58,615 bases of DNA from Vicinamibacteria bacterium (GTDB taxonomy: Bacteria > Acidobacteriota > Vicinamibacteria > Vicinamibacterales > CAVVIG01): assembly GCA_041484265.1 (NCBI GenBank), contig JBGPHH010000001.1, positions 1-58,615 of the forward strand, written 5' to 3'. Each line of letters starts with the position of its first letter. Position 1 is the first letter of the stretch. Both the position numbers and the translations under genes were made by a program. The notes under the pieces are model-generated. The model saw only the letters and a list, made by a program, of their open reading frames with translations, was not told the origin of the DNA and did not search any database. Positions 5,074 through 20,927 of this stretch are shown here, piece by piece.

Positions 5074-5121
5074 TCCGATTTCTGGGGTCCAGTCCTGAAG
5101 CGGGGGTGTCTCCTATTACCC

Positions 5122-5136
5122 CTCACACTGCTTGAC
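5122..5136. repeat. Left target-site duplication CTCACACTGCTTGAC (extendable to 18 nt with the preceding CCC)
   Basis: Identical 15-mer in direct orientation at 19431..19445, each copy immediately outside a terminal inverted repeat. Confidence 0.85.
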
Positions 5137-5172
5137 GGGGATAGCGTACAGGGAGGGGAAAAGTGCTACACC
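5137..5172. repeat. Left terminal inverted repeat core GGGGATAGCGTACAGGGAGGGGAAAAGTGCTACACC; looser similarity continues to ~5345
   Basis: The reverse complement of the right end reads GGGGTATAGCGTACAAGGAGGGGAAAAGTGCTACACC. Subterminal GCGCGC/ACGCAC-rich stretches are shared. Confidence 0.85.
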
Positions 5173-5415
5173 TCGCGCGTGGAGATCGCCTATCCGCGCG
5201 TGCGTGCGTCGTTTGCGTATGCAGAAGTCGCGCGGCGCGCGCGTCACATAGAGCCTGCGCACCCACCTAACACCCTCACACGCGTCAGCTCACACGCACG
5301 CGCGAATGCGAAGTGGCCGCACGCACACCGTTCACGATCTGCGCGCAGGTTGGGGGGGGGCGCACGGAGATCGATCAGGGCGTGTAGTTGGAGTGGTTCG
5401 GCGTTCGCAGCAACG

Positions 5416-6345
5416 TCACTGCGCTGGAATGTCCGTCTGTTCGACGCCGAATTGTAGACGAACTGTGCGGCGTTTGCGATAGACGGGGACAGTCATTCTC
5501 AATCGCGCGTCGAAATAGTCTCGCAGCATCGGTGGGCGCGGTGTCTTCAGATAGCGGTCCGGATTGCCTGCGAGGTCACCCGATGCGACGAGTTCAAGCT
5601 CATCCCTGCGCGTAACGCGTTGGACAAGTGCGGGGATGTGAGTGACGCCGACGTCCCGAAGTGCGTACGCCCTATGACTACCATTGCCGAGAACGAGGCG
5701 GTTCTCGACGCTAAGCACATTGAGAAAGTTCGAGCCATACCCAACGGACAATGCGAGGATGGCGCCGGGGCGGCCGGCTGACTGGAAAGTTTGAACTTGA
5801 GCGGGCTGCAGGAATTGCGCTTCCAGGAAACGGAAATCAGTCGAGTCGGACATAAAAGTGTACATGTTCTGCGCATTCTGCATCGCCGTGAACTGCGGCG
5901 GCTGAGGGTCAAGTAGCGCGAAACCAAAAACAGCCGCCGGCGTTGGGTTTGAGCCGAGGCGCGCCTTAAGTTGTTCGATGAAGGCGAGGTTGATGAACTT
6001 CTGAAAAACGACGAGCCGGTCCAGCTCGACCATCGCGATTTCAGTGGGGACAAAACGGTAGGCCATCTGGAACACAGGATCATTCAGAACTCCGGCGGCC
6101 AAGTGGTTAATGTCGGCCGGCACAGGCACAACCGGGGGATTGTCGGCGGCACCCGCCTCGCTCTTTTCCAGTGTAAGAACGTGGTCGTTCGCAGCCCGCC
6201 AATCCGCCGTGAGTTTTCCGAGGTCAGCTGTCTGACCGTCCACGCTCATTGTGCGAATAAACCCAAGAAGTTCGCCGATCGGCGGCCGGCCGATCAGGAA
6301 GACGTGAGGATCGGAAGCGACTGACGGGGTCAATTGAGTTGGCAT
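5416..6345 (-). CDS. Hypothetical protein (310 aa from ATG at 6345)
   Basis: The coding-like part starts at MPTQLTPSV. The upstream extension of the 387 aa ORF runs into repeat DNA. Contains LGNGSHRAYAL, faintly like the ParB/DGQHR-type motif. Confidence 0.55.
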   Translation of the reverse strand: MPTQLTPSVASDPHVFLIGRPPIGELLGFIRTMSVDGQTADLGKLTADWRAANDHVLTLEKSEAGAADNPPVVPVPADINHLAAGVLNDPVFQMAYRFVPTEIAMVELDRLVVFQKFINLAFIEQLKARLGSNPTPAAVFGFALLDPQPPQFTAMQNAQNMYTFMSDSTDFRFLEAQFLQPAQVQTFQSAGRPGAILALSVGYGSNFLNVLSVENRLVLGNGSHRAYALRDVGVTHIPALVQRVTRRDELELVASGDLAGNPDRYLKTPRPPMLRDYFDARLRMTVPVYRKRRTVRLQFGVEQTDIPAQ

Positions 6346-6438
6346 TTTGTGGTGCTCGGGGAAAATTGGCCTGCTGCCTAACAAGAACCACGCAATCCGA
6401 TGTGCGTGCGAGGCTCGAAGTCTAACGCTGCATTGAGC

Positions 6439-6775
6439 CGGATTCAATTGTGCGGACGCGTGTGCGGCTGTGCGCACAGTGCGAGAAGAAAATGCACGGG
6501 CGGGCGGCGAAATGCACGTTCGTTTCCATGCCCGGCTCACCGCGCGCACGCGCGGACGGGTACAAACAAGAAATCTCACAATTTGTCAGGAATGCAGGAC
6601 TCTCGCACACGTTCCGCGTCGTGAGGGACGGGCGCGCGAAACGCGAACGGCCCACGCGCACACAGCGAGCGATCTAGCGCGCGGAGTGCTACACCCGCGC
6701 GTGCGCGCCCGCAGATCGCGCCCGGTGTGTGTGCGTCGTTCGGCGTTCGCGCGCGCGTTCGCTGAACGCATGTTA
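6439..6775. repeat. Internal copy of the element's subterminal sequences: right-end-like (6439..6684) directly followed by left-end-like (6685..~6775)
   Basis: Shared blocks with the right end: CGGATTCAAT (6439 / 19266), GCGAGAAGA (6481 / 19301), CACGCGCACAC (6653 / 19354). AGTGCTACACC(C)GCGCG at 6685 matches 5162 (same orientation) and 19394 (inverted). Confidence 0.65.
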
Positions 6776-6787
6776 CCGCTCCGCGAT

Positions 6788-8011
6788 TCAGGCTAGTTCG
6801 TTTTGTAGCCTAACTACCTCCTTGCCGAATTCATCCAACACTGAGGGGTCGATACTAATTGTTAGCGTCATTTCAACCACTCGCGGCGTCACGGTTGGTG
6901 GAGCTGCAATCGCGGTTTCGTACGTGTCCCTAATATAAGGACCAAATTCTCGCACCTGCCGTATCAGGTCATCTACCATCTTGCTGACGATTGAACGAAG
7001 GAGGTCATAACGCCCATCAATATTCGCGGCACGCATGCGCGCGGACCAGTGAAGCGCATCCCCGTAGATGTCCGCAATCGTATCGGCGACGAAGATCAGT
7101 CTCTCCGCGTCGCCACTCACTCCCTTGGGGCCGAGCGCTTCTTGAAGCGTCTCGTTCATTAGAGCCGATAGCGCCTTGGCCATTCTCATGGTGTCTGAAA
7201 AACGGGCTCCAAACCAAGCCAATGGCTCCTTCACGTCCTCGCCCAAGCCGAGAGGAATTCCGGTCTCATGCCGCCTCCGTAAACGATGATGCGCGCTCAC
7301 TCCGTCGATCAAGGCGTGCGCGAATAGCCGATATTCCCATCCAGCAGGCTTGTCTAAGGCAATCCGCAAGCTGTCGCCGTGAAGATCTTTCAGCCAGTAT
7401 TGGTCGCCCGCCTGACGGATTCGCTTTTGGAGTGAGAGACCATGACGATGCTGATACGCGAACTGTATCCGCAATGCGTCAATGATGTCGCCCGCGTGCT
7501 TGAACTCTTGCATCCACACTTTGTCCGTTGACCGCACTTGCTCGATAAAATCGAATAGTCTTGGCGTATCTACTCGACTGACGAAGTCAGCGGTCGGATT
7601 CGATTTCCAGATCGGAACTAGCGCGAGTATCCCCTGCTCGATAAAGGCGTAGATGGGAATCCCCTTTAGCCGTGCAGTCAAATACTCCAGATTCGTCACC
7701 GACTTGGACGTCTCGTCATCGATGGTTCCGTATCGCCCGCCGATTACCAAGACGAAAATGTCAGCATCTTGCTCAACACGTTCTCGACAATTGTCGATCG
7801 TGTTGGCGTCAGGACTCAGCGGAAATGACGAGTGCTCCGATAGCAGGGGGCGGTAGCCGAGTTCGTCCTGTAGAAAGCGTCGAAGATCTTCTCTGATCTG
7901 ACGTAGGTCGTAAAATGTCGAGCTGACCATAACGCTGGGTGGATGAGAGCTTTCGTCCATGCAATCCTCGTTTCCCGAATCGTCAACTGTTCTCCCTGAC
8001 GCTGCAAGCAC
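6788..8011 (-). CDS. DUF4062-like N-terminal domain protein with an uncharacterised C-terminal domain (start may be 7960 or 7930)
   Basis: VMVSSTFYDLRQIREDLRRFLQDELGYRPLLSE...ADIFVLVIGGRYGT resembles DUF4062 (from memory). The gene is visibly less GC-rich than its surroundings. Confidence 0.6.
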   Translation of the reverse strand: MLAASGRTVDDSGNEDCMDESSHPPSVMVSSTFYDLRQIREDLRRFLQDELGYRPLLSEHSSFPLSPDANTIDNCRERVEQDADIFVLVIGGRYGTIDDETSKSVTNLEYLTARLKGIPIYAFIEQGILALVPIWKSNPTADFVSRVDTPRLFDFIEQVRSTDKVWMQEFKHAGDIIDALRIQFAYQHRHGLSLQKRIRQAGDQYWLKDLHGDSLRIALDKPAGWEYRLFAHALIDGVSAHHRLRRRHETGIPLGLGEDVKEPLAWFGARFSDTMRMAKALSALMNETLQEALGPKGVSGDAERLIFVADTIADIYGDALHWSARMRAANIDGRYDLLRSIVSKMVDDLIRQVREFGPYIRDTYETAIAAPPTVTPRVVEMTLTISIDPSVLDEFGKEVVRLQNELA

Positions 8012-8212
8012 CCGTGGACTTCGAGCGAACTCGGACGCTTATCCCAGCCGCGTCGCAAGGCACAGCTCCATCGGCCGTTCCCAGTGTCCGCAGTCGGATG
8101 GATAACCCAACCGAAGTTGCTATGGGAGCAGCGCGTACCCTGTGGCCTTCAGCTGTCCAATTCTCGGAAACGTTGAACATCATCTGAAGGCTCGGCCGGA
8201 TGTTCTAGCGAA

Positions 8213-8869
8213 CTATTTCTTCGCCGGTTCCTTCAGAGTCTTTGGGGCAAAATCTTCGCTGCTTATGACAGGTGGGCCTTCGTAGGATTGATCGACGATC
8301 TGGATCGGAATGGCTCGTTGTTTGTTCGTGAAGACCTTCGCTAACGCCTTCCTGATAGTCAACAAGTCGTCCTCAAGCTCTCCCATCGCTACGGGCATGT
8401 AACTATTCCGCCGGATGGCAACCTTGTCAAAACTGAATTCACCTACACACTTCCCCATCTCGTGTAGAAGTGTGTAGAAGAGTTCGTCCCGGTTGGCGAA
8501 ATGAACCGGTTGCGCAGAGGCATCTGGTGGGGTGTTGTTGAGCGAGTCGAGATATTCCTTCCAAACGTCCAAAACTTTCTTGTCGGCATCATTTTTCGGG
8601 TCAAAAAGCAGCTCAATCGTGTTCAGAGCCTCTACGTGCCGAGGAGATAAACGACTTCCTCTGGTCGCCATCAATTCACGGAACAGATGTGTTCTTCGAG
8701 CCTTGGCTTGCCGTCTCCGCTCAAGGAACTCCTGAATCTGAACAGCTAGAATAGGGCCGAGTACGATGGCAATGATGGTCAGGACGCCAAGCCACATCGT
8801 TGCGTCCAATCCTAGAAATGTTAAGGGCGCAGCAGCAGAGGTCGAAGGCGTGGTGGGAGGCGCCTGCAT
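8213..8869 (-). CDS. Membrane-anchored hypothetical protein (single N-terminal TM)
   Basis: TM segment MWLGVLTIIAIVLGPILAV followed by a charged soluble domain. The start lies 4 nt downstream of the cas1-like stop. Lower GC. Confidence 0.6.
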   Translation of the reverse strand: MQAPPTTPSTSAAAPLTFLGLDATMWLGVLTIIAIVLGPILAVQIQEFLERRRQAKARRTHLFRELMATRGSRLSPRHVEALNTIELLFDPKNDADKKVLDVWKEYLDSLNNTPPDASAQPVHFANRDELFYTLLHEMGKCVGEFSFDKVAIRRNSYMPVAMGELEDDLLTIRKALAKVFTNKQRAIPIQIVDQSYEGPPVISSEDFAPKTLKEPAKK

Positions 8870-8872
8870 CGA

Positions 8873-10492
8873 CTAGATTCTAGCACTCGGTGACTGGCGC
8901 GTACTTCGCCGAGCGCTATGCTGCCGGTTCGCTCGCTTGACACGTAAGTGGTTCAGCGAGATACCCACGAGTCGTGCCAGCGTCAACCAATGTCGGGGAT
9001 GCGGCCGGCGCTGCCCCGTGCGAATGAGCTTCGCGTACGGCCACGAAACGCCGAGCGCTTCTGCAAGCGCCGAGGTCATGACGCTCGTGAGGCGCGGTCG
9101 AATCTCGTTCACGTATACCTGTTCTGTTATCCACGCCGGCTGATCTGACGCCTTCCACGCGCGCAGAGCGTCCGCCTGTCGCCGCCGAGTCGCGGACCGG
9201 CGCGCCTGTGCCTCTGGCCGCTGCGTCGCGATCCATGCCTGAGGCATGCCAGCACGGATTCTGTCGGCTGCAACAACCGGCACGCAGCCTCGGCAGTAAG
9301 TCCCGTGGTGGAGAGCCGCACCGCACCGCCGACAGATCCGGGGCGGGCGTGCGGGAGGTGTGATGGGAAGCACGAAGGAACCTTTCACTTCTCGCCGGCG
9401 GCGTTGGGTGAGCCGTGTGGCCAACCGCACCGACCGTTTATATCCTCGCACCGTCGACCACAACGCGTCGGTCACCCGCTCGGCTACGGGCGCAACCACG
9501 CGTCCCCACGCCGGTGCGGTTTCCGCCAGCGTGCGCGCCAGCTCTGCCATCAGGCGACATGACCCATTGCGCTGCTCGAAGAATCCGTCGCGGCGGAGCG
9601 GTTGACGGGTGATCCAATCGAGCAGGTAGGCGTCCACGTGTGGGCGGGCGGCTTCCATGAGATCGAGCGCCAGACTGTCCCTGGCATCGGTATCCACATG
9701 AAGCAATCCGAGACCGGGATCGAGACCGAGGGCCACGGCCGCGAGCCGGGCTTCAGATTCCAAGACCGCGTAGAGGTAGTTCAGCATGGCGTTGGCGGGA
9801 TTGACGGCGACGCGCGAGGAGCCTGATACAGGTGAACGGCGTGGACCGAATGTCCGCCAGTGCTCAGGGACCCGCCGAAGATCGCTGGTGGGAAACAGCA
9901 CGGGCACGTCCCGCCACGCCGACCAATAGGCGAGGGCGCCTTGGGCCTCGATGAGCCGAACGGCGCTCGGACTGTCGGCGGTGCGGAGCGCTTCGCGCGC
10001 CGACTCAATGATGTCGACGACGGCGGCCTGTCCGAGCCGTGCACGCGCCAACCGCGCTTGGCCGGCGAGCTTCTGATCGATCAGGTCTCGGATAATCGGA
10101 AGCGCTACACCGGTGTGATGGGCCAACGCCTGCGCGCGTCGCAGGCGCGCATCCAAGGGACCCACCGGGCCGGTCGCGACCAGCACTGACCCGCCGCGAT
10201 CAAGCATGACGAACGCCGCTTGCTGGTCCGCGAGCCAGCGGATCGCCGCCAGCGAAATCATGCCATCGTTGCCGACGACGACGAGCCGCCGCAAGCCGTG
10301 GCCGACACGAGCAAAACGCGCACGTTGCCGATCGGACGCGATGCCGTCCTCGATGGCGAGGTGCCCGCGCTCAACGCGCACCTTGATCCCGTAGCCGATC
10401 AAGGTCACGACGCCGTGGCGCGGAAGAAGCGGCGCGTCAGCGCGGAATTTGAGAGACGGAGAGTGTTGGTATAGCGTGAGCGCAGCTGCCAT
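8873..10492 (-). CDS. cas1: Cas1-family integrase (casposase-like) with C-terminal Zn-ribbon and HTH extension
   Basis: Diagnostic Cas1 core NPANAMLNYLYAVLESEARLAAVALGLDPGLGLLHVDTDARDSLALDLMEAARPHVD (E...H...E/D). N-terminal beta-domain GYGIKVRVERGHLAIEDG. C-terminal CRRCGAALHHGTYCRGC plus ALAEALGVSWPYAKLIRTG. Confidence 0.9.
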   Translation of the reverse strand: MAAALTLYQHSPSLKFRADAPLLPRHGVVTLIGYGIKVRVERGHLAIEDGIASDRQRARFARVGHGLRRLVVVGNDGMISLAAIRWLADQQAAFVMLDRGGSVLVATGPVGPLDARLRRAQALAHHTGVALPIIRDLIDQKLAGQARLARARLGQAAVVDIIESAREALRTADSPSAVRLIEAQGALAYWSAWRDVPVLFPTSDLRRVPEHWRTFGPRRSPVSGSSRVAVNPANAMLNYLYAVLESEARLAAVALGLDPGLGLLHVDTDARDSLALDLMEAARPHVDAYLLDWITRQPLRRDGFFEQRNGSCRLMAELARTLAETAPAWGRVVAPVAERVTDALWSTVRGYKRSVRLATRLTQRRRREVKGSFVLPITPPARPPRICRRCGAALHHGTYCRGCVPVVAADRIRAGMPQAWIATQRPEAQARRSATRRRQADALRAWKASDQPAWITEQVYVNEIRPRLTSVMTSALAEALGVSWPYAKLIRTGQRRPHPRHWLTLARLVGISLNHLRVKRANRQHSARRSTRQSPSARI

Positions 10493-10569
10493 AGGAACTA
10501 ATCCTTCCTGTGACGGTTAGGGTCTGTCGTCTGCTGATAACAGGCGGCAGGCCCGATTTCGTGTTACGT

Positions 10570-11826
10570 TCAGGGCTGGCTGAGAAGATTCACCTCGACG
10601 GATGTCGCTAGTGCGCGCTGCCGTTCCAGCAGATCGCGCTGCGCCATTTCTGCACGCACGATGTCTTCTTGGGTGCGAGGAACCGCGCACTTCTTCCAAA
10701 ATGTCGCGACAATGCGATAGGGCACGGCGGCGCGATCCTCCACCTCAACATCGGTGTCGTTGATGGCTTCACAGAGACAGAGCCAATCCCGTTCGAGCTG
10801 AGTTCGGACATGCTCGACCTGCAGGGCCTGAATCGTTGCCGGCAACGCCTGGAGCAAGGCGTCCTTCGTGTTGCGCCCCACCTGGGACCACGTGTCGTCA
10901 ATGAGTTCGAAGATCTGATACGTCGAGAACGGCCATCCTGAACTCGGCTCTTTGGCGCACTGCTGAAAGCCATAAGACGCGCTCACGTCGGGCAAGCCTG
11001 CCATCGCCCCGGCGAGATTCGGTGGATTCCGTGCGTGTTTTCTCGGTGACGTGATAAAGGCCAACAGCTCGTGCTGCACGTAGTACGCGACTTGATCGTC
11101 GCGTGTGGCCTCAAGCTCAAGACATTGCGGTCCAAGTCGATCCCACGCCAGTTGACGCTCGTCACGAACCGTCGTGCGGCGGCCGTGCTCGGTCCGCCAT
11201 GTCTCCTTGTCCGTGGATGCGCCATCCAACGCCCCCTGTGCGAGAGCGACCTGATCCTTCGCCGTTTGCAACTCGGACTGAAGGACTGATCGGCGTGTCA
11301 GCAGGTCGTTCAAGGCGCCTGTCGTCTTCTGAATGTCGGACCGGGACGCTTCTTGTGTGGTCTCTCTCAGGAATGGCGTCAGTCGATACCACCCTGGCAT
11401 CATGCGGGCCAACGGGCTCAGCGCCGCACGCAACGCCTCGATCGTTGTGGCACGTGGCAATGCCCAACCAACATCTCCCCATCCTTGGGCCAGGAGCCCC
11501 AGGAACTGCTCGCGATGATTCAACAACGTCTGTGCGTGAATCTCCTCGGGTCGGCCCCCGCGTGTCTTCGCTCGTTCCACAAATCCCTGAGGCTCACGAT
11601 GGCTCGCCTGCCTTTTGCGGCCACGCCCCCGTCGATACGTGCGAGCTTTCACCTCTCGCACAAGTTTCACATCGCGCGGCGACCAGAGCCGGACGCTACG
11701 CCCGTTGCGGATCACCGGCTTCGGCGCCCTCACTCGCTGCGTACGAATCCATTCTTGGAGCGTCACGCGGTCGATATGTACCTTCTGGGCAACCTCCTCG
11801 GTTGTGAGCCGTCGATCCGAAGCCAT
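10570..11826 (-). CDS. Excisionase/MerR-like HTH domain protein with a large uncharacterised C-terminal region
   Basis: N-terminus LTTEEVAQKVHIDRVTLQEWIRTQRV...RLWSPRDVKLV is HTH_17/excisionase-like. The remaining ~340 aa is unrecognised. Confidence 0.6.
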   Translation of the reverse strand: MASDRRLTTEEVAQKVHIDRVTLQEWIRTQRVRAPKPVIRNGRSVRLWSPRDVKLVREVKARTYRRGRGRKRQASHREPQGFVERAKTRGGRPEEIHAQTLLNHREQFLGLLAQGWGDVGWALPRATTIEALRAALSPLARMMPGWYRLTPFLRETTQEASRSDIQKTTGALNDLLTRRSVLQSELQTAKDQVALAQGALDGASTDKETWRTEHGRRTTVRDERQLAWDRLGPQCLELEATRDDQVAYYVQHELLAFITSPRKHARNPPNLAGAMAGLPDVSASYGFQQCAKEPSSGWPFSTYQIFELIDDTWSQVGRNTKDALLQALPATIQALQVEHVRTQLERDWLCLCEAINDTDVEVEDRAAVPYRIVATFWKKCAVPRTQEDIVRAEMAQRDLLERQRALATSVEVNLLSQP

Positions 11827-12086
11827 ATATGTAGTCTATTTTAGCAGAGTGCCAAGGCAGGCCATGAAGTCCACAGTCTCTCTATGTCAAGTGCCTAGAA
11901 ATACGGTTCGCTTTCTCTACGCTACATTAAAACTATGGGTCGGCCAGGCCTTGACTACATGAAAACTAGTACGCGATTCCTCAGCGTCCATCGCGCATTA
12001 CATGGAATTCGTCACCGGGCCTTCGATCGACCGCTCTCCAAGACCCAGGCCCTTCCGGAACGCGCGGTTATTGTCTTGTCAGAATC

Positions 12087-12662
12087 ATGCGACACAGGAC
12101 TCGTCAGGCCCACGCCCGCAAATCGACGCCGCGTCCGGCACGTCAGCGCCGAGCGCGTCGGCGTCACACCGTGCGCCAAGTCCACGCCAGTCCGCGTACG
12201 GCCAGAGCCGCGAACACCCGTGAGCGCGCGCTGAAGGCCTTGCGCCACATGCGACGGGGCGCGTCGCTGTCTACCGCCAGCCGCTCGGTCCAGATGAAGC
12301 CAGGCACCCTGCTGAAATACGCCGGTGGGGCCATCTACCAGGACAAGCCGGGCGGTCGCTTTCGCGCGACGCCGAGCGACCGACTGCGGCGGACATTGCA
12401 GGTGCCGACCGCGGAAGGTCGGCTCACCGTCCCGGTCACGGGCATTCGAGCGGCTCGCCGGTTCTCCGCGTACGAGAACGCCGTCGCCCATTTCCTGAGA
12501 ACCGGTGATGTGTCGAAGCTGGCACCGTTCACGGGCAAACGATTCCGGGTCGGGAAGCGGTCGATCGCGTTCCTCACGGACCCCACTATGCTGCGCACGC
12601 TAGCGGAAGCGGACCTGCTGCGGCTCGACCACCTCTATGCCTCGCTGGTCAGCCCCCTGTGA
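12087..12662 (+). CDS. Hypothetical protein with a highly basic N-terminus (start uncertain)
   Basis: ORF whose stop overlaps the HNH start (GTGA). The Arg-rich N-terminal ~50 aa may be over-extension. Possible HTH at ALKALRHMRRGASLSTASRSV. Confidence 0.45.
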   Translation: MRHRTRQAHARKSTPRPARQRRARRRHTVRQVHASPRTARAANTRERALKALRHMRRGASLSTASRSVQMKPGTLLKYAGGAIYQDKPGGRFRATPSDRLRRTLQVPTAEGRLTVPVTGIRAARRFSAYENAVAHFLRTGDVSKLAPFTGKRFRVGKRSIAFLTDPTMLRTLAEADLLRLDHLYASLVSPL

Positions 12663-12973
12663 CCATTGAGCACCTCGCTCTCTCGGCGCCCGCCAACGCC
12701 CCATGTTGCTTGTTCTGCGGAAGCACGCAGGACATCGAGTGGCATCACGTGGGCGGGCGACACCATGTCGCGTGGTTCGTGGTTCCGCTCTGTCGAACCC
12801 ACCATGAAGAGTTGACGCTGGCCCTTCAACGCGCTCCTGTGGACATGTCCTCTACGCCCGATCCGCAGGAACGCCGAAGACGCGCTCGTCGGGCTACGCT
12901 AGTGTTCCTATGGCTGCTGGACGAGGAACACCTCCCGCCCCCCAAGACATCTTTCTCCGGGCCCACACGGTAG
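12659..12973 (+). CDS. HNH-like endonuclease (small, Zn-finger type)
   Basis: CLFCGSTQDIEWHHVGGRHH...VPLCRTHHEEL gives CxxC ... HH ... CxxHH spacing typical of HNH/His-Me nucleases. Confidence 0.65.
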   Translation: MTIEHLALSAPANAPCCLFCGSTQDIEWHHVGGRHHVAWFVVPLCRTHHEELTLALQRAPVDMSSTPDPQERRRRARRATLVFLWLLDEEHLPPPKTSFSGPTR

Positions 12974-13638
12974 GACCTAAGAAGCGCCCGCCACGCCAGC
13001 GGAAAGACCCACGCTGGCCGAACGCCGTCCTCGTCTTCGACACTGAAACCACGCTCGACACCGAGCAAGCCCTCACGATCGGCGCCTATCGGCGCTGTCG
13101 GCTCGTGGACGGTACGTACGTGTGCGCCGAAGAGGGCGTATTCCACGCCGACACGATCGACGGCCGCCAGCGCGCGGTGCTCGATGCGTACATGCGTGAG
13201 GAGACCGCCGACATCGGCATCACGTCCTTTCCCCCAAGGCTGAAGCTGTCGCGCCACTCGCGCGCCGAGTTCGTCAAGCGTGTGTTCTGGACGGCGGTCC
13301 AGCGGGGCGAGATGGTCGTCGGATTCAATCTGCCCTTCGATCTATCGCGTCTCGCTGTGCAATGGCCCACAGGGCATCACGGGAGCTGGTCCTTGGTGCT
13401 CTCCCTCCGGCGTTCTCGCAAGACGAAGCGGCTTGAAGCCAATCCGTACCGGCCACGCGTGCGCGTGACCGCGACGGACAGTCAGTCGGCCTTTATCACC
13501 GCCACCCTCCCGTATCTCCCAGGGGAATGGGCCGAGGGGCGGTTTCTCGATCTGCACACCCTCGCGAAAGCGCTGTATGACGAGTCCTCTCGTTGGATAG
13601 CCTGCATGAGCGACTGTTTGGCGTCCCAGGCAAAGTAG
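12910..13638 (+). CDS. polB: Family B DNA polymerase, N-terminal 3'-5' exonuclease part (frame 1, ends prematurely)
   Basis: Exo I VLVFDTETTLD and Exo II VVGFNLPFDLSRL. The frame breaks near 13588..13592. Confidence 0.8.
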   Translation: MAAGRGTPPAPQDIFLRAHTVGPKKRPPRQRKDPRWPNAVLVFDTETTLDTEQALTIGAYRRCRLVDGTYVCAEEGVFHADTIDGRQRAVLDAYMREETADIGITSFPPRLKLSRHSRAEFVKRVFWTAVQRGEMVVGFNLPFDLSRLAVQWPTGHHGSWSLVLSLRRSRKTKRLEANPYRPRVRVTATDSQSAFITATLPYLPGEWAEGRFLDLHTLAKALYDESSRWIACMSDCLASQAK

Positions 13639-15800
13639 AGGACTACCAGCCCACGGGTCGCATCTCCGCGGAGGAACTCACGTACTGCCGTCAGGACGTC
13701 CGCGCCACGACCGCGGTCCTCAACGAGTTGAAGCGGGAGTTCGATCGACATCCCTTGCCGAAGCTCTATCCGGACAAGGCCTACTCACCGGCATCCATCG
13801 CGAAAGCGTACCTCGATGCGATGGGCGTCATGCCGCCCAAGCAGAAGTTCAACGTGTCCGATCGCGTGCTCGGGATTGCGATGCAGGCGTACTACGGCGG
13901 ACGCGCCGAATGCCGCATCCGTCGGGTGCCGGTGCCGATCGTGCACACCGATTTCACGAGTCAATATCCCACGGTAAACGCGCTGCTCGACAACTGGAAG
14001 GTGTTGACGGCCCAGCGGCTCCGCGTGGAAGACGCCACGGCCGAGGTCCGAGCGCTCGTCAAGACGGTGACGCTGGACGACACGTTCAGCCAGGACTTCT
14101 GGAAAGACCTGTCGTTCTTTGCGCGCGTGCGACCCGATCGGGACATCTTCCCCGTCCGCACGGTCTACAACGGCCAAACGCAGAATATCGGGATCAATCG
14201 ACTGACGTCAGAACAGCCGCTCTGGTTCGCCGGGCCGGATGTCATCGCCGCCACGCTATTAGGGGGTAAGGCTCCACACATCGAAGAGGCTATTCGTCTA
14301 GTGCCGGAGGGCACGCAGGAAGGCCTGCACCCGACCAACGTGCGCGGCATGGTCGCAATCGATCCGCACACACAGGACTTCTTCCGTCACCTGGTCAAGC
14401 AACGAAAACAGCATGCAGCGGATGAATCGCTCGCGGCCTTTCTCAAGACGCTGGCAAATGCAGGGAGCTATGGCCTGTTCGTGGAACTCAACCCGGAAAA
14501 GCCATCGAAACCTGTCCCCCTGACGGTGTATTCCGGCGACACATCCTTTGTGCTCCCACGCTCACCTCTCGTCGAACAACCAGGGCCCTGGTATTTTCCA
14601 CCGATTGCGGCCCTCATCACGGCAGGTGGGCGACTCCTGCTGGCGATGCTCGAAGGCTGCGTCGAGAAGGCTGGCGGCACGTATCTCTTCTGTGACACCG
14701 ATTCGCTCTGCATCGTCGCGTCCGCGCATGAACAGCTCGTCTCGTGTCCCGGTGGCTCTCGTCAGTGGGAGAGACCGGACGCCATCAAGGCCCTTTCCCG
14801 AGCACAGGTGGTCGAGATCGCGAACCGGTTTACCGCGCTGAACCCCTACGAGACCACACACGTCCCTGGGTCGATTCTCCGGATTGTGGAGATCAACAAT
14901 GACGCGGCCGGTCGACCGCGACATTTGTTCGGGTACGCGATTTCCGCGAAGCGATACGCGCTGTATGAGCACGCGGGCGACGCTGTGGCGATCATCGACC
15001 CGAAGGCGCACGGGCTCGGCTACCTGTATCCGCCGAAAGCGATAGAGAAGGACGATGAGGACGCGCTGGACTGGACCTTCGAGGCGTGGGAGTGGTTGGT
15101 GCGCGACGCCTTGGACTTGCCCGCCACGGACCCGACGTGGCTCCAGCTCCCCGCGATGATGCGTGTGGTGCTGAGCACACCGCTGGTCCTGGAGCGGCTG
15201 AACCGTCGCACCCGTCCGTACAACTTTCTCTTCTGCCCGCTCATCATGGGCTATCCGGCAGGTGTCGATCCGAAACGATTCACGCTGATCGCCCCCTTCA
15301 CGAAACGACGCGAGCGGTGGCTCGACTCCCGATGTATCAACGTGTACGACGGCACGCCGTACAGCCTGGCGCTGCAACAGACCGAGAAACTCGACAAGGT
15401 GATTCCGCAGACGTTCGGCTCCATCCTGCGGCGGTATCGGGACCATCCCGAGGCGAAGTCGCTCGCACCCGATGGCACCCCGTGCACGGCTGACACGCAG
15501 GGCCTCCTGAAACGGGCATCGGTCATCGCGGGAGCACATCGGTATGTGGGCAAAGAGACCGATCGGCGCTGGGTGCACGGGGAACACCTGAGTCTGTTGG
15601 AATCGCGACTCATCGCCTACGAGGCCGCTGGTGGGATGGTGGTGGCCGATGCGGAAATCCGGCGACAACTCGACGCGTTGGGGATGCGCGAAGCGATGCG
15701 ACGGGGCGTGAGCCAGCACACGCAGGAGAAGATCCTGGATGGTCAGCCCGTCCGCCGCGCGACCCTGCTACGGGTCATCGCAGCGCTGAACCGCGACTGA
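13593..15800 (+). CDS. polB: Family B DNA polymerase, Exo III + polymerase part (frame 3)
   Basis: Exo III LTYCRQDVRAT, Pol A VHTDFTSQYPTV, Pol B KTLANAGSYGLF, Pol C YLFCDTDSLCI, KxY SAKRYALY. Confidence 0.85.
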   Translation: MDSLHERLFGVPGKVEDYQPTGRISAEELTYCRQDVRATTAVLNELKREFDRHPLPKLYPDKAYSPASIAKAYLDAMGVMPPKQKFNVSDRVLGIAMQAYYGGRAECRIRRVPVPIVHTDFTSQYPTVNALLDNWKVLTAQRLRVEDATAEVRALVKTVTLDDTFSQDFWKDLSFFARVRPDRDIFPVRTVYNGQTQNIGINRLTSEQPLWFAGPDVIAATLLGGKAPHIEEAIRLVPEGTQEGLHPTNVRGMVAIDPHTQDFFRHLVKQRKQHAADESLAAFLKTLANAGSYGLFVELNPEKPSKPVPLTVYSGDTSFVLPRSPLVEQPGPWYFPPIAALITAGGRLLLAMLEGCVEKAGGTYLFCDTDSLCIVASAHEQLVSCPGGSRQWERPDAIKALSRAQVVEIANRFTALNPYETTHVPGSILRIVEINNDAAGRPRHLFGYAISAKRYALYEHAGDAVAIIDPKAHGLGYLYPPKAIEKDDEDALDWTFEAWEWLVRDALDLPATDPTWLQLPAMMRVVLSTPLVLERLNRRTRPYNFLFCPLIMGYPAGVDPKRFTLIAPFTKRRERWLDSRCINVYDGTPYSLALQQTEKLDKVIPQTFGSILRRYRDHPEAKSLAPDGTPCTADTQGLLKRASVIAGAHRYVGKETDRRWVHGEHLSLLESRLIAYEAAGGMVVADAEIRRQLDALGMREAMRRGVSQHTQEKILDGQPVRRATLLRVIAALNRD

Positions 15801-15940
15801 GGTTACGATAGTCGGACTCAATAATTTCTCATCAGGCGCTGGGATCACGGAAGACGTAGAGCGGATAGTTGCCCTGGCTCCTGAGCAGCGGCTATCCGCG
15901 AGGGTTGCTCTAGGGTGGTGAACAAGCGACAGGAGAAGAC

Positions 15941-16342
15941 ATGAGATCTGCTGCGTTGCTCTTTGCTCTCTTCAGCGTCGTGGTCGGGGTGATAGGCCTC
16001 GTCGTACCCGACAGCCTGATGGCGATGATGAGACAGTCCATGATTACGCCGGCCGGACTCTACGCATTCCTGGCCCTTCGCGTCGCTGTGGGGCTCCTGA
16101 TGATTCTGGTTGCCCCGACCTCTCGTGCGCCGAAGACCTTGCGCGCGTTTGGGGCCGTGGTGGCGCTGCAGGGACTCGCGCTGCCGTTTGTCGGGATCGA
16201 GCGCACGCAACTGGTTCTCGAATGGGAGACGAGCCTGGGAACCGCAGTCCTGCGCGGCGGGGCTGTGCTGGCCTTGGCCGTCGGCAGTTTCATCGCGTTT
16301 GCTGTTACACCTGTCCGGCGCCCTACGGGCGGAGCAAAGTAG
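15941..16342 (+). CDS. Small multi-pass membrane protein (hypothetical)
   Basis: Four hydrophobic segments (e.g. LLFALFSVVVGVIGLVV and GLLMILVAP). 133 aa. Confidence 0.55.
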   Translation: MRSAALLFALFSVVVGVIGLVVPDSLMAMMRQSMITPAGLYAFLALRVAVGLLMILVAPTSRAPKTLRAFGAVVALQGLALPFVGIERTQLVLEWETSLGTAVLRGGAVLALAVGSFIAFAVTPVRRPTGGAK

Positions 16343-16531
16343 TCCAGGAATTCTCTACGGTGCCAGGTCATTCGAGCGCATACTTTAGGGGCCTTACGCC
16401 TTTGGCCCTCTGGCGCGAGCGGTGCCGAGTCCATGAGGGCGTGTAGAACGAAGGAATAGGGTCATGCACCGCGTAGTTCGCCAGCTTTCACCCGACTCGC
16501 CCGTCACCGCGCTCGCGGAATAGCGCGTCCA

Positions 16532-19201
16532 GTGGCATTCGTTGCTGGCGCGCGTCTCGGTCCTTATGAGATTGTCGGGCCGCTTGGTGCGGGCGGCATG
16601 GGCGAGGTCTACAAAGCCCGCGACACACGCCTGGATCGCACGGTCGCCATTAAGGTCCTACCCGCCCAGCTCGCGTCCGATCCGCAGTTCCGCGAACGCT
16701 TCGAGCGCGAAGCGCGTGCCGTCGCAGCGCTGAATCATCCGCACATCTGCACGCTGCACGACATTGGTACGCAGGATGGCGTCCAGTTTCTGGTCATGGA
16801 GTATCTCGACGGGGAGACGCTAGCGGACCGCCTCAAGAAAGGACCGCTGCCCCTCGGTCAGGCTCTCCAATACGCCATCCAGATGGCCAGTGCCCTCGAC
16901 GCCGCGCATCGCGTGGGGATCACGCACCGCGATCTGAAGCCGGGCAATGTGATGGTGACGAAAGGTGGCACCAAGCTGCTCGATTTCGGACTTGCAAAGA
17001 CAGCTCCCGGTCGGGGCCAGCCGGTTCTCACGGACGCGCCGACGATGAGCACACCGCTGACCGGACACGGCACCGTTCTCGGCACGTTGCAGTACATGGC
17101 ACCCGAGCAGCTGGAAGGGCAGAGTCTCGATGGTCGGACAGACATCTTTGCCTTTGGCGCTGTTCTTTATGAGATGGTCACCGGCAAGAAGGCATTCGAG
17201 CGTAAGACGCACGCGAGCCTGATTGGAGCGATCCTGAAGGACTCACCCCCGGCGATCGCTACGCTCCAACCGCTGACTCCGCCGGCGCTCGACCGCGTCG
17301 TCAATACCTGCTTGGCGAAAGATCCGGATGACCGCTGGCAAACCGCGCGCGATTTACTAAGGGAGCTGAAGTGGATTGCGGAGGGTGCGCAAGCGGCCTT
17401 CGCCCCAACCATGACGGCTGCAGCCGTCCCATCACGGATGCATGGACGCGAACGTGTGGCGTGGATTGGTGCCATCGTCGCGTTCCTTGCAGCCAGTGCC
17501 TTTGCGCTCATCGCATTTGGGCACGCAGCTCCGCTGCCGCCCATCGTGCGCTTCGATGTCAGCACCGCTCCGACGTCGGACTCCACATCCTTTGCCTTGT
17601 CCAGCGACGGGAGTCAGTTGGTGTTTGTTGCTACCGCCGACGGCGTCTCGAAGCTCTGGCTAAGGTCGCTCGATCGAACGACCGCGCAGCCGCTCGCGGG
17701 AACGGATGGCGCAACGTACCCGTTCTGGGCACCAAGCAGTTCCTCTATTGGATTCTTCGCCAACAGCAAGCTGAAACGACTCGATCTGGCGGGTGGTCTG
17801 CCGCAGACCCTGGCCGACGCGCCGCTCGGACGTGGCGGCACGTGGAGTCAGGACGACGTCATCGTGTTTGCACCATCGGTTGCGAATCCGTTGATGCGCG
17901 TTGCGGCAACCGGCGGGGTGTCGACGCCAGTGACACGACTCGACCAAGGGTATTTGAGCAATCGGTCTCCGCAGTTCCTTCCAGACGGTCGACAATTTAT
18001 CTTCTCGGCGACGAATGGCGGCAACCAACCGAGAACGGTGTACTTAGCCTCTCTCGACGGTGGTCTTCCCAAGCGCTTGTTTCAAGGCGGCGACGCGGAT
18101 TCGGTCTATGCCCAGCCTGGGTATCTTCTCACGACCGAGCAGGGCCTCTTGATCGCTCGACGTGTGATTCTCCCGAGCGGCGATGTCGGCGATCCGATCA
18201 CAATCGAACAGCCAGTCGGGCGGGACGGAAATGGTCACGGCGCTTTCAGCGTATCCGGAGCCGGCGTGCTGGCGCACCGGGCCGCACCTGTCGATCGTCG
18301 ACAACTGGTGTGGATCGATCGAACCGGGAAGCGGCTTGGCACAGTCGGTCCTGTGGATGACGGCTCTCTTCTCAATCCTGCCCTCGCGCCAGATCAACGG
18401 CGTGTTGCGGTGAGTCGCACCGTTGAGAACAACTCGGACGTGTGGATCCTGGATAGGACTCGTGATACCCGCACACGGATCACCGTAGCCCCAGTTTTTG
18501 AGGACATGCCCGTCTGGTCGCCGGACAGCACGCGTCTGATCTTTAGACGAGGCGTGGATCTGTACGAAAGACTCGTGAGCGGCGGGTCTGAACAGAGGGT
18601 GTTCAGCCCAGAGCGCGCACCGAATGCACACGACTGGTCGCTTGATGGCCAGTTCCTCCTCTACTCCGTACTGGGTGAAAAGACCGGCAACGACTTATGG
18701 GTGCTTCCATTGACCGGCGACCACAAGCCGTTTGCCATCGCCAACACTTCCTCCATCGAGCGAAACGGACAGTTCTCGCCAGACGTACGCTGGGTTGCCT
18801 ACGACTCGAACGAATCGGGTCGTTTCGAGGTGTACGTGCAGGCATTTCCCGGTCCGGGATGGAAGGGACTGATCTCCACGGCCGGAGGGAGTTCACCCCG
18901 TTGGCGCCGTGATGGCAAGGAGTTGTTCTATCTCGCGTCAGACGGCACGATGATGGCTGTACCCGTGCGTGCTGCGGTCGACAATCAATCGCTCGAAGTG
19001 GGCACAATCACGCCGTTGTTCCGGGCACCGATTGTCTTCGGCGGACTTGCTCCTCCGCCTGGCAATCCCCGTCAGCAATATGACGTGGCGGCGGATGGCC
19101 TACGATTTCTGATCAACGTCACGGTCGACGATGTCACGGTGCCGCCGATCACCATCGTCCTCAACTGGCAATCAACGCTCGGAGCGCGCGAAAAGCGATG
19201 A
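16532..19201 (+). CDS. Ser/Thr protein kinase fused via a TM segment to a TolB-like (WD40-like/PD40) beta-propeller
   Basis: GAGGMGEVYKARD, VAIKVL, HRDLKPGNVMV, DFGLAK, APEQ. TM WIGAIVAFLAASAFALIAF. C-terminal repeats such as SPDGRQFIF, SPDSTRLIF, SPDVRWVAY. Confidence 0.9.
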   Translation: MAFVAGARLGPYEIVGPLGAGGMGEVYKARDTRLDRTVAIKVLPAQLASDPQFRERFEREARAVAALNHPHICTLHDIGTQDGVQFLVMEYLDGETLADRLKKGPLPLGQALQYAIQMASALDAAHRVGITHRDLKPGNVMVTKGGTKLLDFGLAKTAPGRGQPVLTDAPTMSTPLTGHGTVLGTLQYMAPEQLEGQSLDGRTDIFAFGAVLYEMVTGKKAFERKTHASLIGAILKDSPPAIATLQPLTPPALDRVVNTCLAKDPDDRWQTARDLLRELKWIAEGAQAAFAPTMTAAAVPSRMHGRERVAWIGAIVAFLAASAFALIAFGHAAPLPPIVRFDVSTAPTSDSTSFALSSDGSQLVFVATADGVSKLWLRSLDRTTAQPLAGTDGATYPFWAPSSSSIGFFANSKLKRLDLAGGLPQTLADAPLGRGGTWSQDDVIVFAPSVANPLMRVAATGGVSTPVTRLDQGYLSNRSPQFLPDGRQFIFSATNGGNQPRTVYLASLDGGLPKRLFQGGDADSVYAQPGYLLTTEQGLLIARRVILPSGDVGDPITIEQPVGRDGNGHGAFSVSGAGVLAHRAAPVDRRQLVWIDRTGKRLGTVGPVDDGSLLNPALAPDQRRVAVSRTVENNSDVWILDRTRDTRTRITVAPVFEDMPVWSPDSTRLIFRRGVDLYERLVSGGSEQRVFSPERAPNAHDWSLDGQFLLYSVLGEKTGNDLWVLPLTGDHKPFAIANTSSIERNGQFSPDVRWVAYDSNESGRFEVYVQAFPGPGWKGLISTAGGSSPRWRRDGKELFYLASDGTMMAVPVRAAVDNQSLEVGTITPLFRAPIVFGGLAPPPGNPRQQYDVAADGLRFLINVTVDDVTVPPITIVLNWQSTLGAREKR

Positions 19202-19393
19202 ACATCCGTCCGGATGTTCGACCCTGGACGGCGGGATTGAAGACGTAGCCGCTCGCGCGGTGGGTCGGATTCAATCTGCGTGCGGCCATGCCCGCACCAC
19301 GCGAGAAGACGCTCCGCGCGTTAGCGAACATGCGCGCGCAAACGGGAATGGCGCACGCGCACACGGGGGGTCGAACTGAGCGCGCAGGACGCG

Positions 19394-19430
19394 GGTGTAG
19401 CACTTTTCCCCTCCTTGTACGCTATACCCC
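19394..19430. repeat. Right terminal inverted repeat core
   Basis: GGTGTAGCACTTTTCCCCTCCTTGTACGCTATACCCC is the reverse complement of the left TIR, with 1 indel and 1 mismatch. Confidence 0.85.
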
Positions 19431-19445
19431 CTCACACTGCTTGAC
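19431..19445. repeat. Right target-site duplication CTCACACTGCTTGAC
   Basis: Identical to 5122..5136, in direct orientation. Confidence 0.85.
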
Positions 19446-19469
19446 ACATGTCTTAGCGGGGTCGATACT
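19441..19469 (+). promoter_or_regulatory. Putative sigma70-like promoter of the Tat-ADH gene: TTGACA - 17 nt - GATACT
   Basis: TTGACA at 19441..19446 (its first 5 nt lie inside the TSD) and GATACT at 19464..19469. GGAGGAGGG Shine-Dalgarno ~9 nt before the ATG at 19500. Confidence 0.35.
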
Positions 19470-19499: not shown

Positions 19500-20927
19500 A
19501 TGTCTATCAATCCATACGATGACGAATCAGGCGTAGAGCGACCGGGGCAGCCGGTTTCCCGGAGAGACTTGTTCAAGACCGGTGCGGCCGCCGTCGTCGG
19601 CGGCGCAGCCTCGGTCCTCGGTGGCGGCACGGCGTTCGCTCAGGCGCCGGCGGTGCAGACAAGCAGCACCGGCAAGAACATGGCGGGCACGAAGTTTCGC
19701 GCCTACGTCCGTCACGCCGACTTCAAGAGCACGACCGTCGAGACGGTGACGCTGCTGCCGATTCAGCCGCGGCAAGTCGTCATCCGCCTGGAAGCCGCGC
19801 AGGCGTGCTACACGATCGTCAATGCGCTCGCCCCAGTACCGCCGGCCCCGCCCGCGCCACCCGCACCGGGTGCGCCGCCCGCGGCGCCGCCGAATCCAGC
19901 TGCCCGCAACGCCGCGATTGTCGGCCACGGCGGCGTCGGCATCGTCGAGCAGGTCGGCTCGATGGTCAAGCGCGTCGAGGTCGGCGACCGGGTCATCGTG
20001 CCGGTCACCGCGCAGTGCGGCGAATGCTACAACTGCCTCCACGGCAAGGCCGACCGGTGCCAGTCGGGTGTCAATCGCCCGCTGCTGCCGATGGCGACGC
20101 TCGCCGATGGTTCGCCCGTCAACGGCAACCTGGGCGCGTTCGCCGAGCTGATGGTCGCGTGGGAAGAGCAGACGGTGCCGATTTTCAGCAAGCACAACGC
20201 CGTTGAGCTCTCGCTGCTGTCGTGCGTCGCGACAACAGGCTTGGGCATGGCGATGATGCGGGTACCGGTCGAGGCCGGAAGCCACGTCGTCATTTTCGGC
20301 GCAGGCCCCGTGGGCCTCGCCGCGATCCAGGGCGCGCGGATCATGGCCGCGTCGAAGATCATCGCGGTCGAGCCGATTGCGTATCGCCGTGCGCTGGCCA
20401 CGAAGGTCGGGGCGACGGCCGTTCTCGATCCGAACGTCGACGCCGCCAATCTCGTGCAGAAGCTCAGAACGATGACGACGGGAGAAACGGACCGCGCGTT
20501 TGCCGGCGGCAGAGGGCCGGCGGCCGACGGCCCCGACTTCATCATCGAAGCGGTCGGCGGAGATCGCTTCCCGCCGAAGACGGCCGAGAAGAGCCCGGAT
20601 CCGACCGGCGCGGGAGTGCTCCAGCAGGCGTGGCAACTCTGTCCGCCCGGCGGGTGGATCAGAACGTGCGGGGTCGGTCATCCCGCTGGCACCACCGTCA
20701 CGTTCCCGGCAGGCGCGTGGTCGAACGGTACCAAGCAGCAGGCCGGCGGCAATTTCGCCGGCGTCAACACCAAGCGCGACATCCCGATGTTCGTCCGCTT
20801 GATCGAAGCGGGCCAGTTCGACGCGAAGTCGATGGTGGGCAAGACCTACAAGATCGACCAGGCGCGTGAGGCGCTGCAGGCGGCGGCCGACCGCACGTCG
20901 ATCTCATCGGTGATGACCTTCACGTAA
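19500..20927 (+). CDS. Zn-dependent alcohol dehydrogenase family protein with a twin-arginine (Tat) signal and a Pro/Ala-rich insertion
   Basis: SRRDLFKTGAAAVVGGAASVLGGGTAFAQA (Tat-like RR + h-region + AxA). GHGGVGIVEQVG, structural-Zn CGECYNCLHGKADRC, Rossmann FGAGPVGLAAIQG. Insertion PVPPAPPAPPAPGAPPAAPPNPAA. Confidence 0.85.
   Translation: MSINPYDDESGVERPGQPVSRRDLFKTGAAAVVGGAASVLGGGTAFAQAPAVQTSSTGKNMAGTKFRAYVRHADFKSTTVETVTLLPIQPRQVVIRLEAAQACYTIVNALAPVPPAPPAPPAPGAPPAAPPNPAARNAAIVGHGGVGIVEQVGSMVKRVEVGDRVIVPVTAQCGECYNCLHGKADRCQSGVNRPLLPMATLADGSPVNGNLGAFAELMVAWEEQTVPIFSKHNAVELSLLSCVATTGLGMAMMRVPVEAGSHVVIFGAGPVGLAAIQGARIMAASKIIAVEPIAYRRALATKVGATAVLDPNVDAANLVQKLRTMTTGETDRAFAGGRGPAADGPDFIIEAVGGDRFPPKTAEKSPDPTGAGVLQQAWQLCPPGGWIRTCGVGHPAGTTVTFPAGAWSNGTKQQAGGNFAGVNTKRDIPMFVRLIEAGQFDAKSMVGKTYKIDQAREALQAAADRTSISSVMTFT

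Follow-up and report, generated by a model that had tools for sequence, protein, structure and literature searches.

A casposon of a Vicinamibacteria bacterium, its Cas1 integrase with a C-terminal zinc-ribbon and helix-turn-helix tail, and its insertion at a sigma70-type promoter

Bacterial casposons were classified as family 3 by Krupovic et al. 2014 (PMC4046053), who described the Cas1 integrase (casposase) of one of them, AceAut-C1, as having "both ZBD and HTH fused to the C-terminus of Cas1" (ZBD, zinc-binding domain; HTH, helix-turn-helix). A 2023 review repeats this ZBD/HTH description of family 3. In the literature that we searched there was no biochemistry of any family 3 casposase, and the targets of the family were called only 'intergenic'. 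Here we describe a casposon in a 58,615-nt stretch of DNA from a Vicinamibacteria bacterium (GenBank assembly GCA_041484265.1, contig JBGPHH010000001.1, positions 1 to 58,615), hereafter the window. Its casposase carries a C-terminal zinc ribbon and HTH, and related casposons allowed us to examine where such elements insert and what the tail of the integrase may do.

The closest structural match of the whole casposase model is provided by the family 2 casposases (Aciduliprofundum boonei; Methanosarcina mazei, 6opm), which resemble the system described here in having a C-terminal HTH and a 14-15-bp target site duplication (TSD), one end of which carries a conserved motif. Family 2 casposases need a flanking 'leader' sequence for integration, and tandem insertions at one site with a shared TSD are known. 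However, they are archaeal, target mostly tRNA genes and lack a zinc ribbon or hairpin, and the similarity of their Cas1 to the window protein is much lower (E 1e-15). Integration is lost when the HTH is deleted from the M. mazei casposase, and it is proposed in that study that the HTH recognises sequence beside the integration site (PMC6977970). This HTH is disordered in the 6opm structure, and a tail profile did not match 6opm at E <= 10. CRISPR Cas1 shares the fold and catalytic residues of the window protein, and Cas1-Cas2 likewise makes two joints at a fixed distance and duplicates a 'repeat'; the addition of casposons beside a conserved flank is comparable to leader-proximal spacer acquisition. 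In contrast, CRISPR Cas1 proteins have no zinc-ribbon/HTH tail, the DNA inserted here is the 14-kb element itself, and the promoter points away from the inserted elements.

The casposase gene is one uninterrupted reading frame with zero internal stops (Table 1). Residues 33-324 match the Pfam family Cas_Cas1 (E 1.8e-38) and the protein also matches the NCBIfam cas1 model (E 4.7e-29); a sequence search of the PDB returned Cas1 4n06 and the M. mazei casposase 6opm. The AlphaFold2 (AF2) model of the full-length protein had a mean predicted local distance difference test score (pLDDT) of 79, with the Cas1 core modelled confidently up to about residue 348, and its top fold match in the PDB was again 6opm, followed by CRISPR Cas1 proteins. 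The catalytic motifs LESE, LLHVD and DLMEA are found at residues 244-247, 263-267 and 277-281, respectively, and an alignment of 27 homologues with 56-71% identity shows no variation at E245, E247, H265, D277 or E280.

The C-terminal extension begins after the end of the core and, according to the AF2 model, comprises about 190 amino acids arranged as a basic linker, a Cys4 zinc ribbon, a helical hairpin, an Xre/Cro-type HTH and a basic C-terminal end. In that model confidence is low over residues 351-377 of the linker, and the compact four-helix bundle spans residues 457-508. The zinc ribbon is PRICRRCGAALHHGTYCRGC (residues 384-403); in a model of the tail it forms two short beta pairs, and metal binding is predicted from its four cysteines. 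Pfam DZR_2 matched 17 of 25 tails, and comparison of a tail profile with the PDB gave weak matches to zinc ribbons of the eL37/eL40 type in addition to XRE regulators. When the tail was modelled alone its pLDDT was 92.8, rising to about 96 in the four-helix HTH bundle, which contains ALAEALGVSWPYAKLIRTGQRRPHPRHW (residues 475-502). The top Foldseek matches of this model were all XRE/Cro/cI/SinR (lambda-repressor-type) HTH domains, with probabilities up to 0.97 and an rmsd of about 3 A over 52-70 alignment columns, but with E values of at least 0.09. Pfam HTH_31 or HTH_3 matched the tails of 9 of 25 relatives (best E 3e-8), whereas the window casposase itself fell below threshold for the Pfam HTH and zinc-ribbon models.

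In the 27-homologue alignment C387, C390, G391, C400, C403, S483, Y486, A487, R491, G493, P497, H498, R500 and H501 are invariant, and in a 25-sequence tail alignment that extends down to 24-33% identity the four cysteines, W446, Y486, G493, P497, H498 and H501 remain so. The conservation of catalytic, Cys4 and C-terminal residues indicates that the combination of Cas1 and tail is real and far above chance. Thus, it is very probable, taking identity and architecture jointly, that this gene encodes a Cas1-type integrase (casposase) with a zinc-ribbon and HTH tail. The first-pass annotation of this DNA, which was made from the sequence, had proposed a Cas1 homologue with intact catalytic residues followed by a CxxC...CxxC zinc ribbon and a basic HTH-like tail, and the matches, invariant residues and models described above bear this out. 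Its estimate that the core ended near residue 370 and was followed by about 170 residues must be revised to about 348 and about 190. As for the basic tail, an HTH and a basic end are both present, but the last 27 amino acids are peculiar to the window protein and not conserved in relatives.

Within the linker the motif T-x-L-T-Q-x-x-R-R stands out; T359, L361, T362 and R367 are invariant in close relatives, and L361 and T362 are almost invariant in the wider clade. A conserved basic motif in a segment predicted to be disordered may represent a functional peptide or a stretch in contact with DNA. Because the target described below includes a -35 box, an HTH resembling sigma70 region 4 was considered and rejected, as the fold matches listed for the tail were of the Xre/Cro type only. 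Among the 50 best of 494 fold matches there was no sigma-factor domain; 1rio, the one entry in which sigma region 4 is present, was aligned via its lambda cI chain. We also compared the C-terminus of PolB with the Cas1 tail, since similarity between the two was reported for family 2, and found zero BLAST similarity.

The tail is not restricted to this protein. It is present in each of the 120 best homologues (474-560 amino acids, 86-96% query coverage), and a profile of the tail alone, run against 1.84 billion proteins, retrieved 4,771 cluster representatives at E <= 1e-3. When one genome was scanned from each species, 313 relatives were identified, and the best 79 of these, independent loci that are nearly all from Acidobacteriota, encode the Cas1-tail fusion; the fusion is conserved across several phyla. 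Judged by these comparisons, the zinc-ribbon/HTH tail is a family-wide trait. AceAut-C1 (from fosmid AP011671 of Candidatus 'Acetothermum autotrophicum') likewise has both its ZBD and its HTH at the C-terminus, and its Cas1 core is 47% identical to that of the window protein (E 1e-72). When the AceAut-C1 core was used as a query, relatives of the window protein were returned as full-length matches. A 75%-identical relative of AceAut-C1 (P0122) can be aligned with the window protein over the full length, including the tail, and has the same order of CxxCG..C..C followed by TGLS..Y..IR.G..PHP.H. Like the window element, AceAut-C1 has a 15-bp TSD, a bacterial host and an intergenic insertion. It differs in its terminal inverted repeats (TIRs), reported as 602 bp compared with 36 nt here, and the tail of its branch, compared via P0122, is about 26% identical to the window tail and has a longer hairpin region. 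The published description of AceAut-C1 gives no target motif.

A second family 3 element, NitAL212-C1 of Nitrosomonas sp. AL212, resembles the window element in its 36-nt TIR starting GGGGTAT, its 14-bp TSD, its size of 14.4 kb and its intergenic position. Its Cas1 core is 34% identical to that of the window and both ZBD and HTH are present, although its ZBD is N-terminal rather than C-terminal and its TSD (AGCCGGTACTGCCC) lacks the TTGAC found in the window TSD. Pairwise Cas1 similarity, with 47% identity to AceAut-C1 and 34% to NitAL212-C1 versus E values of 1e-15 to 1e-20 for the family 2 casposase and CRISPR Cas1, strongly favours placing the window element in the family 3 clade (AceAut-C1, NitAL212-C1, HenMar-C1, StrAlb-C1). 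A Cas1 with a C-terminal zinc ribbon and HTH has thus been known since 2014, and the window protein adds a member. The first-pass annotation had regarded the architecture as unrecognised; because that of AceAut-C1 is published and the tail is family-wide, this claim of novelty fails. The tail is essentially the standard one of a Cas1 subgroup that has been described at the level of domain cartoons.

The casposase gene belongs to a complete, recently inserted casposon of 14.3 kb (5137-19430). The two TIR arms are 36 nt long, 94% complementary and 14.2 kb apart, and homologous TIRs are present in 33 related loci. The element is flanked by a perfect 15-bp TSD, CTCACACTGCTTGAC, which occurs only in these two copies within the whole window. 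TIRs and TSDs were resolved for 34 related elements (within loci L001-L076). In 32 of the 34 the TSD ends in TTGAC, compared with a background of about 0.1% per position. Moreover, a TAnnnT hexamer lies 17-18 nt downstream of TTGAC in 29 of these 32 elements, whereas among 2,782 TTGACs taken as controls the proportion was 4.5% (Fisher p 6e-35). The occurrence of TTGAC at the TSD end together with the spacing of a -10-like hexamer indicates that these casposons insert at sigma70-type promoters. In the window the insertion is intergenic and inside a promoter, TTGACA-N17-GATACT; next come a ribosome-binding site and the ATG with which a zinc-dehydrogenase-like gene starts. The target is therefore promoter-like, as had been suspected from the sequence. 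The empty target site was reconstructed as CTCACACTGCTTGACACATGTCTTAGCGGGGTCGATACT. Since the TSD duplicates TTGAC, the -35 box, the promoter-proximal copy keeps the promoter intact. Elements were found in both orientations relative to the target (19 versus 15 of the 34). Promoter targeting by casposons was unreported in the casposon literature that we searched.

On the other side of the insertions, the promoter-distal DNA that abuts the TSD is itself a casposon TIR in 20 of the 34 sites, often that of another subfamily (flanks were called TIR-like when they scored at least at the 99th percentile of controls; Mann-Whitney p 3e-12). TIR-like promoter-distal flanks suggest serial, polar insertions in which the newest element adjoins the promoter; they imply either serial insertion at one promoter or decayed older copies. 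Such flanks include those of L002, L015, L017, L018, L020, L026, L042, L062, L066 and L072, and a weak example is seen in the window at about 5080-5121. In one case two casposons (L034 and L038) lie about 19 kb apart on one contig.

Casposons with different TIRs were also found to occupy orthologous housekeeping promoters, the genes being named here by sequence motifs only. A valS-like (valyl-tRNA synthetase) gene is downstream in six loci (L015, L049, L054, L062, L063, L066) and an rnpA-like (RNase P protein) gene in three (L017, L019, L021), with single cases upstream of nuoB-, tig (trigger factor)- and thiolase-like genes (L003, L011 and L073). Other kinds of target were considered. No tRNA gene was found as a target in the window or in 11 loci, and there were zero Rfam matches to a known structured RNA in 6 loci.

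The idea in the first-pass annotation that the tail may specify the TIR or the promoter-like target is plausible. Our favoured proposal for what the tail may do is as follows. The Cas1 core would form an integrase oligomer that joins the 3′-OH ends of both TIRs to the target 14-15 bp apart, with one joint falling exactly after the TTGAC of the promoter -35 box. The flexible linker would let the zinc-ribbon/HTH arm dock this complex on DNA as a sequence-reading module. The likeliest substrate of the tail would be the promoter flank beside the TSD, which runs from TTGAC(C) through the spacer of 17-18 nt to the TAnACT -10 box, and this flank would be the counterpart of the 'leader' required by family 2 casposases. 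As the TSD duplicates TTGAC, an intact target would be rebuilt at each insertion, which would explain the serial insertions. We estimate the probability of this overall explanation at about 0.5, a compromise over its layers of identity, DNA-binding arm and promoter reading. By analogy with the M. mazei enzyme, the tail is probably a DNA-binding arm required for integration. That its substrate is the promoter flank, and not the TIR, is possible, at slightly less than even odds. The further step, that the tail makes this bacterial casposase branch, a very large one that has so far gone unexploited, home to sigma70-type promoters by reading the -35/spacer/-10 flank and placing the Cas1 active site exactly after TTGAC, is offered tentatively and seems to us rather doubtful.

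Several observations weigh against the proposal. The isolated family 2 HTH bound no DNA in its authors' hands, and the base-specific contacts of the M. mazei casposase with the TSD are made by the Cas1 core (PMC6977970). A family 1 casposase without an HTH also integrates site-specifically, so that recognition of TTGAC may fall to the core. The promoter bias could, in part, reflect the survival of harmless insertions rather than the specificity of the enzyme. For a casposase with zinc ribbons only (P0220) and for distant HTH-bearing loci (L080-L087), no TIRs and TSDs could be delimited. The remaining points on this side concern the TIRs, and they also favour a different function in which the tail binds the casposon's own ends (the inner TIR or subterminal repeats) and brings the donor to the Cas1 active sites, leaving the core to pick TTGAC. 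Common to the TIRs are GGG(G)(T)ATAG at the terminus, an A-tract that lies about 22-27 nt inwards and a C-run at the C-rich inner end, features that a conserved HTH could read, and the partial Mantel correlation of HTH with TIR divergence given the core showed a weak positive trend (r 0.12, p 0.06, 34 elements). An inner-TIR motif, AAGTGCTACACC, is present in 4 copies in the window (5161-5172, a partial internal copy at 6684, 10100-10111 and 19394-19405), compared with 0.08 expected. Some casposases have two or three tandem HTH modules, as would be expected for repeated subterminal sites, and many transposases use N- or C-terminal DNA-binding domains on their own ends. Target reading without an HTH is also seen in the family 1 casposase and in the M. 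mazei core.

However, the TIRs are strongly subfamily-specific, with a mean pairwise distance of 0.44 between elements, while both the target and the putative recognition helix are near-invariant, a combination that fits target reading better than TIR reading. The simple Mantel correlation of HTH with TIR divergence was absent (r 0.08, p 0.12), and in simple and partial tests of TIR divergence against the core, linker, zinc ribbon and HTH of the 34 elements there was no significant correlation. TIR distance was uncorrelated even with the core (r -0.13), which marks the distance measure as noisy. In addition, once the M. mazei casposase has lost its HTH it shows no activity, not even with single-stranded TIR substrates to which the core binds directly (PMC6977970), so that donor recognition is not obviously the missing function. 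On balance we regard a TIR-binding tail, the chief rival of promoter reading, as unlikely. A regulatory or architectural tail, in which the Xre HTH represses casposon genes, for example in the divergent cas1/polB region at 11826-12087, or in which the hairpin and zinc ribbon oligomerise or recruit PolB or HNH and take no direct part in choosing the site, appears improbable. Xre/Cro-type HTH domains, which the tail matches in fold, are typically repressors and long helical hairpins commonly serve for dimerisation; moreover, the zinc-ribbon-only casposase P0220 is accompanied by a separate downstream Xre-type HTH gene, suggesting that a protein acting in trans can provide the HTH function. Against this, the tail has been conserved as part of the integrase in several phyla and thousands of proteins, the family 2 HTH is needed for catalysis in vitro, where regulation is not involved, and a repeated operator-like motif was not seen in the divergent region, in which no systematic search was made. 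There is hardly any chance that the extension is an artefact in which a sequencing error joined a separate downstream ORF to cas1, a possibility raised in the first-pass annotation. The neighbouring polB gene is frameshifted, so local errors or decay are possible; however, no stop or change of frame interrupts the casposase gene, its top 120 homologues are alike in length and cover the tail, the fusion recurs in the 79 loci and AF2 models the tail confidently. The mis-fused ORF is excluded because homologues share length and coverage and independent loci encode the fusion. A tail that docks the integrase on the promoter flank stays our preferred reading, at the strength given above.

Natural variants of the tail were seen among the relatives (P0240, P0254, P0275, P0284 and P0342; P0220, P0232 and P0239). 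Two or three PH.RHW-type modules occur in tandem in some full-length casposases, whereas others have extra zinc ribbons in place of the HTH, as in P0220, whose locus (L080/L081) has the separate HTH gene directly downstream of the casposase gene. The short matches to the tail profile that we inspected looked like Cas1 C-terminal fragments (for example P0278) or tail-only ORFs; the latter, such as P0257, may be truncated or split gene calls. Of the variants considered for judging the function of the tail, P0128 (329 amino acids, L082:10001-12153), which lacks it, was rejected as a natural tail-less form: it is a disrupted copy whose cas1 is truncated by an adjoining IS3-family element (rve transposase). 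P0131 sits at a contig end. One related casposon locus (L051, CAVXKJ010000003.1), in a set of otherwise acidobacterial matches, belongs to a contig that bears the label 'Candidatus Micrarchaeota archaeon'; this is probably a binning error, with transfer less likely.

The features of the element and its target are collected in Table 1. The arrangement Cas1 / orf191 / (HNH) / PolB is kept in about 70 of the 79 related loci. PolB has the Exo I/II/III motifs and FCDTDS, and its match to Pfam DNA_pol_B_2 is weak. Its gene contains a single frameshift near 13575-13600, with an intact ORF of about 950 amino acids in L001, L005 and L010. This frameshift may be a recent inactivation or an assembly error, so that the PolB gene is possibly non-functional or wrongly assembled; apart from it, TIRs and TSD are in pristine condition. 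The Ser/Thr kinase/PD40 cargo gene matches PADLOC PD-T4-6 anti-phage models (E 1e-96), and the casposon may thus carry defence genes as cargo. A stretch of about 85 nt from the left subterminal region, with the inner-TIR motif in it, recurs within the element at 6684-6770 in the left-end orientation; this repeat may be an older left end outside of which the module containing the 387-amino-acid ORF was added, or it may provide extra binding sites. No CRISPR-like array was detected in the 58.6-kb window. Within 5137-19430 there was no match to a cas family other than cas1, cas2 included, while a subset of the window ORFs was scanned elsewhere. A tandem heptamer, TAGGGGT x 7.4, is located between two host genes at 833-884 of the window.

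Table 1. Positions of the casposon, its casposase and its target in the window (strand + or -; basis of each assignment in the last column)
Feature	Position	Strand	Basis
TSD, left copy, CTCACACTGCTTGAC	5122..5136	+	direct repeat flanking TIR
Left TIR, GGGGATAGCGTACAGGGAGGGGAAAAGTGCTACACC	5137..5172	+	inverted-repeat search
Cargo downstream of cas1: DUF6680 (8213-8869), DUF4062 (6788-8011), unannotated 387-aa ORF (5416-6579)	5416..8869	-	ORFs, Pfam
Casposase (Cas1 homologue), 539 aa, full ORF with stop	8873..10492	-	ORF, domain, homologue, AF2 and fold evidence
Basic C-terminal 27 aa (residues 513-539)	8876..8962	-	not conserved in relatives (27-sequence alignment)
Putative Xre/Cro-type HTH bundle, residues 457-510, signature S-x-x-YA..IR.G...PH.RHW	8963..9124	-	tail model, fold matches, Pfam in relatives
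Long helical hairpin, residues 404-445, invariant W446 directly after	9158..9283	-	AF2, tail model, tail alignment
Predicted Cys4 zinc ribbon, residues 384-403 (C387, C390, C400, C403)	9284..9343	-	invariant Cys, tail model, Pfam, profile
Arg-rich linker, residues 349-383, low pLDDT, conserved motif T359-x-L361-T362...R367	9344..9448	-	alignment, AF2
Cas1 core, residues ~20-348, catalytic E245/E247, H265, D277, E280	9449..10435	-	Pfam, AF2, invariant residues, 6opm fold match
418-aa protein, N-terminal HTH_17/excisionase-like motif, same strand as and directly upstream of cas1	10570..11826	-	domain search, synteny
Conserved casposon ORF, 191 aa (orf191)	12087..12662	+	between Cas1 and PolB in 58/79 related loci
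HNH-like small ORF (CxxC...WHHV...C..HH)	12659..12973	+	motif; weak Pfam DUF968 (E 0.004); 17 related loci
Family B DNA polymerase (PolB), frameshift-split: ORFs 12910-13638 and 13593-15800	12910..15800	+	motifs, Pfam, synteny
Cargo: Ser/Thr protein kinase with PD40 repeats	16532..19201	+	PADLOC PD-T4-6-like
Right TIR, GGGGTATAGCGTACAAGGAGGGGAAAAGTGCTACACC	19394..19430	-	inverted-repeat search
TSD, right copy, CTCACACTGCTTGAC	19431..19445	+	direct repeat flanking TIR
Targeted sigma70-type promoter TTGACA-N17-GATACT, upstream of zinc-dehydrogenase-like gene 19500-20927	19441..19469	+	sequence

The family to which this element belongs provides hundreds of intact elements with clean ends, which makes it useful for asking what the casposase HTH does. 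The family offers an invariant, mutable target (TTGAC-N17-TAnACT), diverse TIRs and natural tail variants, so that the role of the tail is directly testable. If the tail reads promoters, this would bear on how Cas1 integrases gained leader-dependent site choice. If promoter homing is true, such a casposase would be a DNA integrase that naturally targets promoters through a defined and portable domain, which could yield an integrase that is programmable by domain, and the polar stacking of elements beside a 'leader' would be a living analogue of the step that has been proposed to lie between casposons and the leader-directed acquisition of CRISPR spacers.

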